A DNA stretch of 64,000 nucleotides from Escherichia phage JLBYU24. The stretch's first letter is position 1. Each line of letters begins with the position of its first letter. The DNA lies in the sequence record OK272476.1. One strand, 5' to 3'. The notes below the pieces were generated by a model. The model saw only the letters and a list, made by a program, of their open reading frames with translations. It had not been told where the DNA came from and did no database searches. A program made the translations under genes and the position numbers. This document shows positions 3,294-41,476 of the stretch, piece after piece.

Positions 3294-4496
3294 TTATTTT
3301 GTAATAATGTCAAACTGTTCTTTAAAGCAGAAGCTTGAATCTTGATGCTGATACAAAAATTCATATGCTTTTTCTCGCTCACGGTCATAAAGAGCTCGGT
3401 CAGATGACAGTTCTTTAATATGTTCAAATGTTGATTCCATGTCATTTTCATCAAACCAAATGATACCGCTATCATGCGAGGTCAAAGGATTATTATCAAC
3501 ACGGAATTTTAAATTTTCGCCAGTAGATTTCCAAAATACCGGAATTGTTCCACATGCACCAAGCTCGAGATGAGTATATTCTAAAGAACGTTGTAGATAT
3601 TTTTTATCCAACTTACTCAACTGATAACCAAAACCGGATTTACTCATGCGTTCAAGCATTTCGCTATTTACATAACGGTCAAGAATTTGCGTTGGCAAAT
3701 TAGGAGCAATTTTAATTTGGTCTACTTGATGAAGACGATAATACTCGTATGGAATTCCTTTTTCTTTAATAGGAATAAACGCTGGAGAACGTTCCAGACC
3801 TTCCATAATAGTACTTAGTCCTGCAGGTTTAAGATGTTTTTCATGAAAATCAAACATCTGATAAAAACCTTTCCATGTAGTAGTACGACCAATCCAACGG
3901 TTGATATTCATGTTAATTTCAGAAACATCTTTCCAGTAGGTTGATCGAACCTTCGCAATATCCATCGGAGGCTGAAAGTTATATACTGTCGGCGCTTCTT
4001 CAATATCATCAAACAGAGAAACTGTTTCAGGATACCACTCTTTCATCAGAACTTTATTAAAATCACCATTATCAGAATGGCTAAAAATAACATCAGCTCG
4101 ACGAACAGTTTCTTCTAATCCCAAATTTCGACGCAAAGAAAGAGAAGAATGGTCATGTTGATAAACTACAATACGAACAGAAGGTTTAATGTTATCAATA
4201 ATTTTTTTATAGTTATTAATCGTGTCTTCTTCAACCGAAGTAGCAGGAACCGAATTGATAATTAGAATATCACAATCATTTACCAGCTTAAGTGTTTTAT
4301 CATATTCTTTTGCCAATAAAACCGGAATTGAAAATGATTTATAATCATGCGCGCAATTACGAGTAAATGATTTATCTTTAGCATAAACCAAAGTTACTTC
4401 ATGACCATTTTTAATAAACCAATCACGTTGCTCGAGTGAGAATTTTGTTACACCACAACCTTCAAGACCTCGAGCCATAAAAATACATACTTTCAT
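3294..4496 (-). CDS. a-gt: DNA alpha-glucosyltransferase
   Basis: 400 aa, recalled near-identity to T4 alpha-gt, T4 position between 47 and 55. Confidence 0.9.
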   Translation of the reverse strand: MKVCIFMARGLEGCGVTKFSLEQRDWFIKNGHEVTLVYAKDKSFTRNCAHDYKSFSIPVLLAKEYDKTLKLVNDCDILIINSVPATSVEEDTINNYKKIIDNIKPSVRIVVYQHDHSSLSLRRNLGLEETVRRADVIFSHSDNGDFNKVLMKEWYPETVSLFDDIEEAPTVYNFQPPMDIAKVRSTYWKDVSEINMNINRWIGRTTTWKGFYQMFDFHEKHLKPAGLSTIMEGLERSPAFIPIKEKGIPYEYYRLHQVDQIKIAPNLPTQILDRYVNSEMLERMSKSGFGYQLSKLDKKYLQRSLEYTHLELGACGTIPVFWKSTGENLKFRVDNNPLTSHDSGIIWFDENDMESTFEHIKELSSDRALYDREREKAYEFLYQHQDSSFCFKEQFDIITK

Positions 4497-7770: not shown

Positions 7771-7800
7771 ATAATACCACGGTTTGAACTTGTTGTAAAC
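7771..7800 (-). promoter_or_regulatory. T4-type early promoter
   Basis: Minus strand GTTTAC (7795-7800), 18-nt spacer, TATTAT (7771-7776); AT-rich upstream. Confidence 0.5.
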
Positions 7801-7875
7801 AACTTTGTGAAAATTATTTTAGGGAATGATAAGAAGGGAACGATAGCTTAGAATGGTAATATACAGAATGTAAGA

Positions 7876-30214: not shown

Positions 30215-30307
30215 TTCTGTATTTACCCATTACCGCACTCAGGCTCGACCTTATCACAGGTTGGCGGGAATCCCTCACAGAATCATGAGGTCCAGCTTGT
30301 TCCCATA

Positions 30308-30781
30308 TTATTTGAACGATTTAACGTACTGAATAGAACCTTTACTATTCACAAAGGCAATTTTACCATTTTTATTATACATGGTAGCAGTACGTTGATA
30401 ACCATAAGTTTGTTTACCAGATTGATAACCAACTAATGCGAAATTATCTTCGCCCATTTTATTCTGTTTAGCGCGAATGCGTTCATGACCATGTGCCATA
30501 AGAACCTTAGCATCACCAGTTGCAATGGATCGACGAGTTTTTTCATCTTCAACTGTATTAACAAAGTCGTCAAATGAATCAAATTTAGCATGAGATTTAT
30601 TATACAATTTTCCATCTACTGCATAATTATATCCCTGTACATCCATCTCAACTTCTGTACCATCATCCAATACAGCAGTGATTTTTTGACCTTTTTTAAA
30701 TTTCAAAAGATCAGTAAAAGATTCAGCAATAATTTGAGAATTAATAGCTGCTTCAGTGATAAATTCTTGATATGTTTTCAT
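30308..30781 (-). CDS. Internal-protein-like (capsid-targeted) protein
   Basis: 157 aa; N-terminus MKTYQEFITEA matches the T4 internal-protein capsid targeting sequence; located beside denV/e as ipII/ipIII in T4. Confidence 0.7.
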   Translation of the reverse strand: MKTYQEFITEAAINSQIIAESFTDLLKFKKGQKITAVLDDGTEVEMDVQGYNYAVDGKLYNKSHAKFDSFDDFVNTVEDEKTRRSIATGDAKVLMAHGHERIRAKQNKMGEDNFALVGYQSGKQTYGYQRTATMYNKNGKIAFVNSKGSIQYVKSFK

Positions 30782-31232: not shown

Positions 31233-31262
31233 ATACTATCACAATTCTAGGAGAAAGTAAAC
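31233..31262 (-). promoter_or_regulatory. Putative T4-type early promoter
   Basis: GTTTAC (31257-31262), 18-nt spacer, TAGTAT. Confidence 0.4.
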
Positions 31263-31266
31263 AACT

Positions 31267-32235
<969 letters not shown>

Positions 32236-36498: not shown

Positions 36499-36574
36499 TG
36501 GTCGAGGCAGTAGGGATCGAACCTACGACCTAGGACTTAGAAGGTCCTTGCTCTTCCTTCTGAGCTATGCCTCG
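36499..36574 (-). tRNA. tRNA-Arg (anticodon UCU), CCA encoded
   Basis: Manual fold: acceptor CGAGGCA/TGCCTCG, anticodon stem AGGAC/GTCCT, loop CTTCTAA, T-loop TTCGATC. Confidence 0.85.
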
Positions 36575-36578
36575 GATT

Positions 36579-36653
36579 TGGCGGACGTGATAGGATTCGA
36601 ACCTATAACCAATCGCTTAACAGGCGATCGCTCTGCCATTGAGCTACACATCC
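36579..36653 (-). tRNA. tRNA-Asn (anticodon GUU), CCA encoded
   Basis: Manual fold: all stems canonical; anticodon loop CTGTTAA. Confidence 0.8.
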
Positions 36654-36657
36654 AAAT

Positions 36658-36744
36658 TGGTGGGGAGTGATGGAGTCGAACCACCCGAGTCGCAATGACA
36701 ATGGATTTACAGTCCACACCGCTACCTCTACGGGATAACTCCCC
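36658..36744 (-). tRNA. tRNA-Tyr (anticodon GUA), long variable arm, CCA encoded
   Basis: Manual fold: acceptor GGGGAGT/ACTCCCC, anticodon loop CTGTAAA, long variable arm. Confidence 0.7.
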
Positions 36745-36756
36745 TAATTCATAATT

Positions 36757-36831
36757 TGGTGGCCCTGGGTGGAATTGAACCACCATCTGGCGATTATGAG
36801 TCGCTTGCTTGAACCTTCCAGCTACAGGGCC
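36757..36831 (-). tRNA. tRNA with CAU anticodon (Ile-lysidine type as in T4, or Met), CCA encoded
   Basis: Manual fold: acceptor GGCCCTG/CAGGGCC, anticodon loop CTCATAA. Confidence 0.75.
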
Positions 36832-36832
36832 T

Positions 36833-36908
36833 TGGTGCTGATTGACGGAATCGAACCGCCGACCTTCTCATTACAAGTGAGTTGCTCTACCTACTGAGCT
36901 AAATCAGC
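36833..36908 (-). tRNA. tRNA-Thr (anticodon UGU), CCA encoded
   Basis: Manual fold: acceptor GCTGATT/AATCAGC, D-stem GCTC/GAGC, anticodon loop CTTGTAA. Confidence 0.8.
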
Positions 36909-36913
36909 AAAAC

Positions 36914-37003
36914 TGGCGGAGGCGATAGGATTTGAACCTATGAGTCGCCGGAGCGACTGCCGGTTTTCAAGACCGGTGCATTAAACCACTCTGCCACGCC
37001 TCC
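36914..37003 (-). tRNA. tRNA-Ser (anticodon UGA), long variable arm, CCA encoded
   Basis: Manual fold: acceptor GGAGGCG/CGCCTCC, anticodon stem CCGGT/ACCGG, loop CTTGAAA. Confidence 0.8.
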
Positions 37004-37009
37004 AAATAT

Positions 37010-37660
37010 TTATATATTGTTAATTTGATTTAGAATTCTTTTTGCTTGAGTATGACTTACGCCAATATGCTTAGCATATTTAGACAATTCGCCACGTTTA
37101 GAAAAATCATATAATTTAGAAATTTCTATTCTTCTTTTTCTTTCATCCGCAGAAACTTTTGCTTCGTTTGCTTTTGCTATTTTACGTTTAGCTTCTTGAG
37201 AATGAGTTTTACCAGCAAAGCCATTCTTCATTAATCCATTTGAAGACCATCCTTTTAATTTTCCGTTAGAATGTGCCTTTTTAACACCCAATGAAATTAA
37301 TTCGCGTTGCTGATCTGTCATAGGATAATTATTTATATGGTCCCATCCACCTTCACCTCCAAGTTTTAAATTATACACATCTGGTCTATTTAAAAACTCT
37401 TCTGTGACAATATTTTTCTCGGCTTCAAGCATAGATTCTTTATCGTCAAAATACTCTAATATTTCTTTAGAAAAATTTTCTATACCATATTTATCTTGGG
37501 CTCTTTTTAATAATTTACCAGAACCCATATATCCATCATCTAAATTTTCGGTAGAATGCACACCAATATAAATTTTATTATTAATTTTATTTGTTATTTT
37601 ATAAAGATAAAAATGCATATCAGTCCCTAATAAAGAACTGAGCGTCTCACGACGAGTCAT
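37010..37660 (-). CDS. GIY-YIG homing endonuclease (Seg-like) inserted between the tRNA subclusters
   Basis: 216 aa; GIY-YIG motifs FYLYKITN...KIYIGVH, conserved R/E/N positions, basic C-terminal DNA-binding region; start may be Met at 37618. Confidence 0.8.
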   Translation of the reverse strand: MTRRETLSSLLGTDMHFYLYKITNKINNKIYIGVHSTENLDDGYMGSGKLLKRAQDKYGIENFSKEILEYFDDKESMLEAEKNIVTEEFLNRPDVYNLKLGGEGGWDHINNYPMTDQQRELISLGVKKAHSNGKLKGWSSNGLMKNGFAGKTHSQEAKRKIAKANEAKVSADERKRRIEISKLYDFSKRGELSKYAKHIGVSHTQAKRILNQINNI

Positions 37661-37664
37661 AAAT

Positions 37665-37738
<74 letters not shown>

Positions 37739-37743
37739 AAATT

Positions 37744-37832
37744 TGGTGCGAGAAGTGGGACTCGAACCCACAAGGAAATCATTCCGCAGCATTTTAAGTG
37801 CTGTGCCTTTACCAATTTGACCATTCTCGCGC
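37744..37832 (-). tRNA. tRNA-Leu (anticodon UAA), long variable arm, CCA encoded
   Basis: Manual fold: acceptor GCGCGAG/CTCGCGC, anticodon loop CTTAAAA. Confidence 0.8.
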
Positions 37833-37904
37833 TGGGAATAAAGGACTCGAACCTTTGCATCCTGGAATCAAAATCCAGTGCCTTACCAACTTGGCTAATT
37901 CCCA
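37833..37904 (-). tRNA. tRNA-Gln (anticodon UUG), 3' end abuts tRNA-Leu, CCA not encoded
   Basis: Manual fold: U1-A72 acceptor TGGGAAT/ATTCCCA, anticodon stem CTGGA/TCCAG, loop TTTTGAT. Confidence 0.75.
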
Positions 37905-38799: not shown

Positions 38800-39189
38800 T
38801 TACCCTTCATCAACAATAGTATGAGTGTGGGCATTTACAATTTGCCACCAATCAAAGCGATTAGAACCATACATTGGTTTGTTCTCATTTTCTTTGATAA
38901 TGTCACGGAGTTCATCTTCGGTAGCGGCTTTCGCGATTAAATCAGCATATCCACCACGAGGATAATAATTATCACCTGCAAAAAGTAAAAAGTTTGGTTT
39001 AATATTATTAAACTCTTCAAGAGTAATAACTGTTCCGCCAGGTTGAACAATATCTACATAACTATATCCTAATTTTTGAGCAGCATCTACTGCTTCAAGC
39101 AGGGTATCATGAGCCCATCCAATTTGGCAATCTGGCTTTTCAGATGGATTAGCCTGATAATCCGCGTACACTTTATACATTCTATTCAC
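38800..39189 (-). CDS. Hypothetical protein (129 aa)
   Basis: ORF track. Confidence 0.65.
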   Translation of the reverse strand: MNRMYKVYADYQANPSEKPDCQIGWAHDTLLEAVDAAQKLGYSYVDIVQPGGTVITLEEFNNIKPNFLLFAGDNYYPRGGYADLIAKAATEDELRDIIKENENKPMYGSNRFDWWQIVNAHTHTIVDEG

Positions 39190-39367
39190 CTTTAGAAATT
39201 TTATCCATAACGATAGCGATTAAACCAATTAAAAATGCTACTACAAGTGAAAACACATTTTCTGCTGTAGTCAATAATCCGCATATAAATCCAACAAACA
39301 TTGAAAAACTAAAAGCAGAAGCAGAAATTGCAATAGCAACATTTCGAATTAATTCACAACGTTTCAT
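39182..39367 (-). CDS. Small membrane protein
   Basis: 61 aa, two hydrophobic helices. Confidence 0.6.
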   Translation of the reverse strand: MKRCELIRNVAIAISASAFSFSMFVGFICGLLTTAENVFSLVVAFLIGLIAIVMDKISKGE

Positions 39368-39395
39368 TTTATTCTCCTCGGTAGTTGATAGGGTA

Positions 39396-39425
39396 ATAGT
39401 ATCACTACCCTATCTAAAAGTAAAC
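39396..39425 (-). promoter_or_regulatory. T4-type early promoter
   Basis: GTTTAC (39420-39425), 18-nt spacer, TACTAT; spacer contains palindrome GGGTAATAGTATCACTACCC. Confidence 0.5.
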
Positions 39426-39659
39426 TTATTTTTTACGAAAAATTGATTTATTTTCTGCTGCCCATTTTTCAATAACTGCAGCAGGACCAGTAACAACAAT
39501 TTTATCACCGTAATCTTCTGCGGCGAGTTGACCGAAATTATCTAATGCATCACGAAGAACTCCATGAGGCATTTCACCCATTTTATCTTTCTTGCCGGTG
39601 TAAATAAACTCAACTTTTACATCAGAAGATTCAGCGATAAACTCTTTGAAAGTTTTCAT
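39426..39659 (-). CDS. Internal-protein-like small protein (77 aa)
   Basis: Starts MKTFKEFIAE (IP capsid-targeting-sequence-like); ORF-track entry 39426..39725 trimmed because upstream codons overlie the promoter. Confidence 0.7.
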   Translation of the reverse strand: MKTFKEFIAESSDVKVEFIYTGKKDKMGEMPHGVLRDALDNFGQLAAEDYGDKIVVTGPAAVIEKWAAENKSIFRKK

Positions 39660-39693
39660 TTTGATTTCCATTTGGTTTTGTTTTGATAGAGTA

Positions 39694-39723
39694 ATAGTAT
39701 CACTACTAAAACCCTGTGTAAAC
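39694..39723 (-). promoter_or_regulatory. T4-type early promoter
   Basis: GTTTAC (39718-39723), 18-nt spacer, TACTAT; ~65-nt region near-duplicated at 40004-40070. Confidence 0.5.
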
Positions 39724-39735
39724 AACTTTGTGAAA

Positions 39736-39993
39736 TTATTTTAAATCTTCTAATCGTTTCTTCATCTTAGAACCATTTTTAGCAATTTCTCCTGCATCTG
39801 AGCATAATGCTAAAAGCGCTTTAACTTTAGTTTGGTCTCCTTTAAAAGATGAAGGATCGACTGCAGCAGCAAGTTCTTTAATACGAGAGAAAAGACGCTC
39901 AGCTTCAGCTAAAGCCATTCCAAGCTTTACTTCCATACCGTGGGAAGATTCGGTGATAGTAGTTTTTGTAGCAAACTCTTTGAAAGTTTTCAT
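39736..39993 (-). CDS. Internal-protein-like small protein (85 aa)
   Basis: Starts MKTFKEFATK (IP capsid-targeting-sequence-like). Confidence 0.7.
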   Translation of the reverse strand: MKTFKEFATKTTITESSHGMEVKLGMALAEAERLFSRIKELAAAVDPSSFKGDQTKVKALLALCSDAGEIAKNGSKMKKRLEDLK

Positions 39994-40003
39994 TTTATTT
40001 TCC

Positions 40004-40033
40004 TAATTAATTTTGATGAGATAATAGTATCAC
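40004..40033 (-). promoter_or_regulatory. T4-type early promoter
   Basis: GTTTAC (40028-40033), 18-nt spacer, TACTAT. Confidence 0.5.
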
Positions 40034-40065
40034 TACCTCATCAACGTGTAAACAACTTTGTGAAA

Positions 40066-40762
<697 letters not shown>

Positions 40763-40763
<1 letters not shown>

Positions 40764-41476
40764 TATAGTACCTTTAGTGTATTTTTAATTTTAGAAAAAA
40801 GTTCTTCAAGAGAACCATCGTTTGTAATTACTAAATCGCCATCACGAATTGGCAATCCAGCTTCTGTAATATGAGTATCATTGGATTTTTGACCAGGACG
40901 AACTACATGAATTACTGTAGCACCCATCGCCCTAGCCGCATCCATTTCATGATCTTGACGAGTATCAGGAACGATATAATAATCATAACCTGAGTTAAAT
41001 TTATCAAGATAATCTAAAGCAAATAATTTTACCCAATACATGCGGTCGAAGTTATTAACAATCAAATCCGTACCTAGGGCTTGCATCAGACGACGGACTG
41101 ACCATTGATCTTCAATATTATTTATAACGTCAGCAATCTTGTTAAATGCTACGAAATTAACTGCGTCATCAAAAACAAACACACCTTTAATTGGGCTTTT
41201 ACTATTAAGATAGCAAAATGCTTGTTCCATAATCGTAATTACTTCTAATTTAGTCAGATTTAAATTAGTTTCACGATCATAGTCAATTCCTTCAAACTCT
41301 TTACGAGTTAAACAAGGATAGTCAGTGTTTGCTGCAAATACACCCCATGCATAAGCCAATGCATCTTTAATAGGACCAGCAAGTTGATATTTAACTGCAG
41401 AATAATTATTCATGATAAAATCTGCAGTAGTATCTTTTCCACTACGCTTTACACCACTTAAAAAGATTAGTTTCAT
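40763..41476 (-). CDS. 1: Deoxynucleoside monophosphate kinase
   Basis: 237 aa; P-loop LSGVKRSGKDT; T4 gene order. Confidence 0.92.

Follow-up and report, generated by a model that had tools for sequence, protein, structure and literature searches.

The tandem genes ip5 and ip6 of Escherichia phage JLBYU24 (record OK272476.1) lie in what is, by gene order and sequence, the hypervariable ipI locus of a T6/T2-like T-even phage (Tequatrovirus), between 57B and trna.4. The observations as a whole are best explained, with a probability that we put at roughly 0.88, by the known ip5 and ip6 genes at this locus being modular cassettes that encode injected inhibitors and are exchanged through their flanks. 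The window analysed here is a stretch of 64,000 nucleotides of the phage DNA. ip5 and ip6 are cassettes already annotated as ipV and ipVI, and this class of feature is known; publications from 1985 to 2014 described the repeated elements and a presumed role in host range, and a report from 2025 assigned a function to the Ip6 family.

Every gene listed in Table 1 lies on the minus strand, including two adjacent genes of 77 and 85 aa that, as the original prediction had it, both start with MKTFKEF. Their synteny places ip5 and ip6 in the slot of T4 ipI, at the 57B-trna.4 locus, one of two IP loci (the other is the e-denV region); in T4, ipI alone occupies the 57B-trna.4 interval. The upstream anchor is named gp57B in the GiZh, PST and T4 records and the 61-aa downstream gene tRNA.4 in GiZh, PST, RB32 and T4; no capsid-targeting leader was found in the trna.4 homologue. 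Nucleotide comparison of the 981-nt region gave 99.6–99.7% identity with TH09, GiZh and JLBYU31 and 97–98% with PST and T6, the value for T6 being 97.7% across the whole Ip5-Ip6 region. Coverage was 80% or more in 157 of 736 matching phage records.

Table 1. Genes, repeat copies and regulatory elements at the ip5-ip6 locus (positions in the window).
Feature	Position	Strand	Description
Gene 1	40763-41476	minus	dNMP kinase
57A	40521-40763	minus	
57B	40066-40521	minus	151 aa; conserved upstream anchor; Pfam Acb1 PF23474, E 2.6e-60
ip5 (ipV)	39736-39993	minus	85 aa; PHROG 3499 and GenBank names
ip6 (ipVI)	39426-39659	minus	77 aa; PHROG 8111 and GenBank names
trna.4 homologue	39182-39367	minus	61 aa; predicted membrane protein; downstream anchor; PHROG 1692
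ORF	38800-39189	minus	129 aa
Repeat copy A, before ip5	40011-40081	minus	repeat family D1
Repeat copy B, before ip6	39681-39751	minus	repeat family D1, reference copy
Repeat copy C, partial, before trna.4	39383-39453	minus	repeat family D1
Copy A promoter, -35	40047-40052		TTTACA; 17-nt spacer
Copy A promoter, -10	40024-40029		extended -10, TG-A-TACTAT
Copy A hairpin	40013-40044		14 bp; encloses the -10
Copy B promoter, -35	39717-39722		TTTACA (promoter scan)
Copy B promoter, -10	39694-39699		TACTAT, with upstream TG (promoter scan)
Copy B stem-loop	39678-39725		
Copy C, GTTTAC	39420-39425		directly after the ip6 stop
Copy C promoter, -10	39396-39401		TTTACT-17-TACTAT
Copy C hairpin	39387-39414		12 bp; encloses the -10
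Late-promoter-like TATAAATA	41119-41126		inside gene 1

Ip5 begins with the leader MKTFKEFATKTTITE, followed by SSHG, and has a predicted mature protein of 70 aa. It matched PHROG 3499 ('internal head protein') at 1.2e-49 and is 100% identical to Bas37_0261. The names ipV or Ip5 are used in GenBank for GiZh, PST and RB32, with 'Ip5' from RB70/T2 in UniRef, and the GenBank note of RB32 describes Ip5 as 'similar to RB15 T6 T2 RB70 Ip5 ... replaces ipI'. An AlphaFold2 model of Ip5 is a two-helix hairpin with a disordered leader (pLDDT 71), for which Foldseek returned generic helical hairpins and designed proteins and no match at E <= 0.001. Ip6 begins with MKTFKEFIAE, followed by SSDV, and has a predicted mature protein of 67 aa; it matched PHROG 8111 ('internal virion protein') at 3.3e-51, is called ipVI in GenBank for GiZh and PST and is listed as 'Ip6' from VR20 in UniRef. 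Its model is ferredoxin-like (beta-alpha-beta-beta-alpha-beta, pLDDT 81), again with a disordered leader. Pfam has no family for either protein, and a PDB sequence search with the profiles of the two families gave no credible match. Among 1.84 billion representative proteins, a profile search yielded only five real Ip6 relatives, and since those that contain the N-terminus share the leader, no bacterial or other source of the Ip6 cargo was found in this search. The start of ip6 is the ATG at 39659. A TTG at 39725, which would open a 99-aa ORF, was rejected: it precedes the predicted start of transcription, and the leader would be buried.

We compared nine internal proteins: Ip4, Ip5 and Ip6 from the window, IPI, IPII and IPIII from T4, Ip7 and Ip9 from RB32, and the product of a 75-codon gene (74 aa) of G4498. 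All nine carry a leader of the form M-K/E-T-F/Y-K/Q-E/K-F, together with an I-x-E that ends at residue 10, 15, 19 or 20. Pairwise BLASTP of the mature parts gave no significant match (best E 0.08). Mutagenesis of the IPIII leader assigned targeting to residues 4 and 7 and processing to residues 8 and 10 (PMC9026906); in Ip5 as in Ip6, position 4 is aromatic and position 7 is Phe, and the (I/L)-x-E motif of gp21 is present as IAE10 in Ip6 and as ITE15 in Ip5. I-T-E in the Ip5 family and I-A-E in the Ip6 family do not vary, distant members included, despite changes in leader length: an Ip5 relative with a shortened leader reads MQTYQTFITE followed by SSHG. Distant Ip6 relatives have the leaders MKTYQEFINE and MKTYQEFMAE. 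With a T4-type leader, the I-x-E motif and the position in the T4 ipI slot, the proposed membership of both proteins in the internal-protein class is supported. Ip4 is also encoded in the window, and Ip4, Ip5 and Ip6 together make up the T6/T2-type set; the GC-rich spacer after ip4 (30215–30307) is unremarkable.

Each of the two genes had been predicted to follow a near-identical block of about 65 nt. The block is real and spans about 70 nt, but it is present in three copies, not two. Copies A and B are 83% identical over 71 nt, and copy C is 61% identical. The 32-mer GATTTAAAATAATTTCACAAAGTTGTTTACAC occurs exactly twice in the 64 kb and was absent from 100 shuffles with up to three mismatches allowed, while the 15-mer GTAGTGATACTATTA occurs exactly three times in the 64 kb, always at the ip locus. 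A second repeat (D3) of 31 nt and 94% identity extends from the ribosome-binding site through the ATG into the first codons. The repeat is real, far beyond chance. It also extends further than had been proposed, running not to 40033 but about 48 nt beyond it, to about 40081, and starting inside the preceding CDS. The shared stretch GAT TTA AAA TAA (DLK-stop) is common to the ends of 57B and Ip5, the C-termini of which read DDLK-stop and EDLK-stop, respectively, with identical DNA.

From the upstream stop codon, the element continues with an A/T-rich stretch, GTTTAC(A/T), a 17-nt spacer, TG-A-TACTAT and a Shine-Dalgarno sequence just before the ATG, and it contains an inverted repeat with the -10 in its loop. 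The promoter of copy A scored 9/12 with the TG in a promoter scan and is followed by the ribosome-binding site AGGAAA. Its hairpin has a folding energy of -18.6 kcal/mol (81-nt piece) and a z of -3.5 against shuffled controls; on the same scale the stem-loop of copy B is weaker (-2.0) and that of copy C reaches -3.4. The promoters of all three copies fit the consensus TTTACW-N17-TAYWAT of PST/T4 PeSL elements (PMC4122927). Copy A is near-identical to the 57B-ipI spacer of T4, and copy C is the counterpart of the T4 ipI-trna.4 spacer; in the T4 record X03016 from the 1980s, the equivalent of copy A is labelled as the putative early promoter PE2 and 'pot. stem-loop structure', and that of copy C as the putative early promoter PE1 and 'pot. 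IpI terminator'. Judged by these consensus matches and the old annotation, the blocks are predicted T4-type early promoters, each with a predicted hairpin. A scan of the region for consensus intrinsic terminators gave none, and a terminator function is doubtful since the hairpins have no U-run. The promoters directly upstream of ip5 and ip6 are of the early type only. A late-promoter-like sequence lies within gene 1 (Table 1), and T4 has the same sequence at the same offset. Prohead assembly being late, the proteins could be supplied at that time by persisting early protein or by read-through, for example from TATAAATA.

The same elements bracket every ip gene in the 57B-trna.4 interval of six phages, among which we observed five cassette sets: Ip5-Ip6 in this window and in PST, IpI in T4, IpI-Ip6 in ECML-134, Ip5-Ip9-Ip7 in RB32, and Ip9-Ip7 plus the 75-codon gene (leader METYQKFIVE) in G4498. 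Between these close relatives, the element forms the boundary of ORF insertions, deletions and replacements, and the GenBank notes of RB32 report a '43 bp direct repeat' flanking Ip7 and Ip9. Copy B is a mosaic, the 5′ half of which corresponds to copy A, while its spacer AGGGTTTTAG is that of the T4 ipI-trna.4 copy. When ip6 was compared with its counterpart in phage Bas37, 6 of the first 36 nt differed, as against 1 of the remaining 198 (Fisher P-value 5.7e-5), and five of the six changes in the leader match the adjacent ip5 leader. The ip6 leader thus appears to be a conversion tract, toward the Ip5 type, and we infer recombination at the repeats from these mosaic patterns. A cassette would consist of the regulatory element (upstream stop, early promoter, inverted repeat around the -10, Shine-Dalgarno sequence) and an ORF opening with a capsid-targeting sequence of 10–15 residues that ends in I-x-E. 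The near-identical flanks, promoter/hairpin upstream and leader codons downstream, would provide portable homology, at which T-even recombination could insert, delete or swap unrelated cargos. Portable homology of this kind would explain both the differing cassette sets of the relatives and the homogenisation of the leader seen here.

The likeness of the blocks might instead reflect a long T4 early-promoter consensus, that is, functional convergence and not descent or recombination, with no role in exchange. The upstream half, TTTTCACAAAGTTGTTTACA, does recur with a 19/20 match at 7794–7813, 32 kb away and before an unrelated gene, and AAAGTTGTTTAC also precedes denV (31257–31268). However, the exact 32-mer takes in the coding 3′-end of the upstream gene with its stop, GATTTAAAATAA, which is no promoter element, and mosaic relationships link the copies to each other and to those of T4. 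Convergence would also have to accommodate the conversion tract in the ip6 leader and the fact that cassettes present in one phage and absent from another are delimited by the blocks. We consider it very unlikely.

The original prediction saw in the two cassettes a duplication followed by divergence of the cargo. That a promoter-ip cassette was duplicated in tandem in this lineage, its cargo diverging until no similarity was left, would agree with the adjacency of the cassettes, with the 83% identity over the 71-nt block and with the 94% over 31 nt at the start codon; had the event been ancient, selection on promoter and leader could have kept the flanks. Alignment of the cassettes, which had been proposed as a check, did reveal likeness in the block and the leader, but none in the mature parts: similarity between Ip5 and Ip6 ends abruptly past the leader (alignment there at 11/17 residues), the mature proteins have no BLASTP match to each other, and the predicted folds differ, a helical hairpin in Ip5 and a ferredoxin-like alpha/beta structure in Ip6. 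Moreover, each of the two genes is found without the other and beside different partners (RB32, ECML-134, G4498), and the unrelated IpI of T4 is bracketed by the same flanks. Such a duplication is therefore highly improbable. Modular cassette exchange fits the data, whereas local duplication with divergence does not, and an ancient common origin of the promoter and leader module is implied.

The elements resemble the PeSLs described earlier (Arbiol 2010; Comeau 2014), which likewise combine a stop codon, an A/T-rich stretch, a promoter, a stem-loop and a Shine-Dalgarno sequence, lie between small variable ORFs and mark indel boundaries among close relatives. Comeau 2014 (PMC4122927) analysed PST, the ip locus of which is 98% identical to that of the window. 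T-even IP elements differ from the PeSLs of RB49/phi1 in being analogues and not homologues of them (Arbiol, PMC2839356); they have T4 early promoters and weaker, AT-rich stems, and may cause IP shuffling (PMC2839356). A further difference is that the repeated homology here reaches into the coding leader. Both PeSL papers trace the IP-locus elements to Repoila 1994 (PMC2839356, PMC4122927), and, to go by their account of that work, recombination at flanks that moves unrelated cargos is the 1994 model, later elaborated as PeSL shuffling.

In T4, the 10-residue leader is enough to have foreign proteins packaged, and a head contains IPI-III at about 360 copies (PMC9026906). From their leaders and the analogy with T4 IPI-III, we infer that Ip5 and Ip6 are packaged, processed by gp21 and injected; a literature search for virion proteomics on the two proteins found nothing. 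By the same analogy, the leader would bring Ip5 and Ip6 into the prohead scaffolding core, where the gp21 prohead protease would cut after the leader Glu, and a few hundred mature copies would be injected with the DNA and at once neutralise nucleases attacking modified DNA. That they are instead unpackaged early cytoplasmic anti-defence proteins, with MKTFKEF as a relic or a translation-initiation feature, is extremely unlikely: the promoters directly upstream are indeed all of the early type, and the HIDEN-SEQ preprint likewise derives packaging from the leader alone (bioRxiv 10.1101/2025.11.20.689424), but the leader and I-x-E persist, as the rest diverges, in nine proteins with no other relationship and in distant relatives of Ip6, the leader that packages foreign proteins in T4 is homologous, and a nuclease acting on entering DNA is best met by a pre-made, co-injected inhibitor.

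T4 Ip1, Ip2 and Ip3 each inhibit a different GmrSD type IV enzyme, without cross-protection (Silas et al. 2025, PMC12373910), and the same authors proposed that all proteins of both Ip loci target variants of such enzymes (PMC12373910). This published work on T4 Ip1-3 agrees with the suggestion in the original prediction that diversified IP cassettes are anti-restriction and host-range determinants (PMC12373910). Neither in sequence nor in structure are Ip5 and Ip6 homologous to IPI*, Ip2 or Ip3, the inhibitors characterised so far.

For Ip6, functional evidence comes from Bas37 (phage KarlGJung, MZ501089), in which two genes replace ipI (bioRxiv 10.1101/2025.11.20.689424). Disruption of bas37_0260 caused a strong defect on K-12 BW25113 and none in the absence of McrA, McrBC and Mrr, and its clean deletion made the phage sensitive to McrBC specifically (preprint, bioRxiv 10.1101/2025.11.20.689424). 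The gene is a 234-nt ORF of 77 aa at 145553–145786 of MZ501089, on which GenBank and the table of the preprint agree. Bas37_0260 is the ortholog of Ip6, at the same position and 95% identical overall. The two differ at residues 4, 5, 11 and 12, the leader and first mature residues being MKTYQEFIAE-TA in Bas37_0260 and MKTFKEFIAE-SS in Ip6. Since this ortholog, needed against McrBC, is 100% identical to Ip6 at residues 13–77, Ip6 is very probably an inhibitor of McrBC. About a quarter of the hydroxymethylcytosines of T2 and T6 are unglucosylated, whereas T4 glucosylates all of them. Incomplete glucosylation would account for a need of T6-type phages, not shared by T4, to be protected from McrBC. 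The expectation of protection against a GmrSD-like type IV system was thus right as to type IV restriction, but the enzyme indicated by the Ip6 ortholog is McrBC and not GmrSD-like.

The target of Ip5 is probably another type IV or entry-stage defence. When CFT073 was compared with K-12, insertions in bas37_0261 were depleted about 4-fold (log2FC -2.09, with an adjusted p listed as 0), and insertions in the upstream 57B had a log2FC of -1.56 (both HIDEN-SEQ Extended Data Table 7). No effect was seen on CFE299 (HIDEN-SEQ supplementary data). Because 57B/Acb1 mutants are depleted too, the depletion for bas37_0261 may possibly be a polar or an independent 57B effect. Uropathogenic E. coli CFT073 has a GmrSD homologue, c5421 (PMC4437046). 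One might combine these observations into a joint reading, in which Ip5 would be an injected inhibitor of a CFT073 defence, with c5421 as one candidate, and the promoter/hairpin-leader module a dedicated enzyme-free exchange scaffold with active leader conversion; this is tentative, and we hold it to be possible but not probable. T2 and T6 are restricted by the GmrSD enzymes of UTI89, ECOR21 and ECOR17, and T2 also by that of CT596 (PMC12373910, PMC4437046). As T2 carries Ip5 and the T6 record matches the Ip5-Ip6 region, neither protein blocks these enzymes.

The closest known systems include T4 IPI, with which the present genes share the 57B-trna.4 slot, the flanking promoter/hairpin element and the small size of the mature proteins. 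The Ip5 leader MKTFKEFATKTTITE is a shorter form of the IPI leader MKTFKEFTSTTTPVSTITE. The role of IPI is directed against type IV restriction, its mature form IPI* (76 aa) inhibiting the CT596-type GmrSD. Unlike IPI, Ip5 and Ip6 come as two cassettes in place of one, with mature sequences that have no detectable similarity to it, and T2, which has Ip5 and no IPI, is restricted by the CT596 enzyme. T4 IPII and IPIII have the 10-residue leader MKTYQEFIAE, matching that of Ip6 at 8 of 10 positions, early promoter/inverted-repeat spacers of the same design and the same logic of injected target-specific inhibitors, but they are encoded at the e-denV locus and their mature sequences are unrelated. 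They act on the GmrSD enzymes of ECOR21 and ECOR17, by which T2 and T6 are restricted (PMC12373910).

The locus leaves the current understanding unchanged. It is a textbook hotspot of phage counter-defence, at which a single packaging leader and a single promoter module serve small inhibitors that are unrelated to each other. Phages can therefore swap inhibitors and so change which restriction systems they survive, and knowing the ip cassettes of a T-even phage is useful for phage therapy and for the prediction of host range.

Besides Ip5 and Ip6, the product of a third gene in the window, ip4, starts with a capsid-targeting leader: its N-terminus reads MKTYQEFITE/AAINSQIIAE/S..., where the slashes follow two I-x-E motifs of the type recognized by the prohead protease. 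The same 157-aa gene is annotated as ipIV/Ip4 in GiZh and JK1. The order of genes at this second internal-protein locus is e - denV - ip4, whereas in T4 it is e - ipIII - ipII - denV. Thus, the window encodes three leader-bearing internal proteins (Ip4, Ip5 and Ip6), none of which is IPI, IPII or IPIII of T4.

Features at and around the internal-protein loci (window coordinates unless stated)
Feature	Coordinates	Strand	Description
ip4	30308-30781	-	157 aa, third gene with leader; PHROG 3155
57B	40066-40521	-	immediately upstream of ip cassettes
Late-promoter-like motif TATAAATA	41119-41126	-	within gene 1
tRNA cluster	36502-37904	-	nine Rfam tRNA matches
GIY-YIG-like ORF	37010-37660	-	216 aa; splits tRNA cluster; position of homing endonuclease segB
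GC-rich spacer	30215-30307	-	95 nt, between ip4 and next ORF
bas37_0261	L010 (Bas37 DNA) 3364-3621		Ip5 ortholog with identical product

When ip6 was compared with its Bas37 ortholog, 6 of the first 36 nt (39624-39659, minus strand) were found to differ against 1 of the remaining 198 (P-value 5.7e-5). Five of the six changes in the leader match the leader of adjacent ip5, a pattern that suggests gene conversion between the neighbouring cassettes.

Each ip cassette is preceded by a copy of the repeat, the early-promoter/hairpin block. At a distance of 32 kb, ahead of a gene with no relation to the cassettes, the upstream half of this block recurs with 19/20 identity at 7794-7813 (minus strand; TTTTCACAAAGTTGTTTACA, preceded by TAAAATAA). 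On the same strand, AAAGTTGTTTAC is located at 31257-31268, after the lysozyme stop codon and ahead of denV. These copies illustrate how far the early-promoter consensus of T-even phages extends. Late transcripts that read through into 57A, 57B and the ip genes could possibly arise from the late-promoter-like motif TATAAATA within gene 1, a motif whose offset from the gene end is equal in the window and in T4 (L003, 9006-9013).

The tRNA cluster with a GIY-YIG-like ORF in the segB position is ordinary among T-even phages. The spacer following ip4 has no Rfam match at the gathering threshold, its folding energy is not better than that of shuffled sequences (z +0.4), and it is kept at 100% identity in close relatives; none of these checks revealed anything notable.

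Functional data on Bas37 come from sheet S3 of Extended Data Table 7 in a preprint (10.1101/2025.11.20.689424). Mutants with insertions in bas37_0261 showed ~4-fold depletion on CFT073, a uropathogenic E. coli, relative to K-12 (log2FC -2.09, adjusted P-value 0). Mutants of 57B were depleted as well (-1.56). No such effect was seen on CFE299. The main-text passages of the preprint that were examined contain no mention of bas37_0261 depletion on CFT073. The 57B product, which several public records still label as 'RNA ligase' or hypothetical, has a match in Pfam to the anti-CBASS family Acb1 (PF23474, E-value 2.6e-60), and the ip locus therefore adjoins another counter-defence gene.
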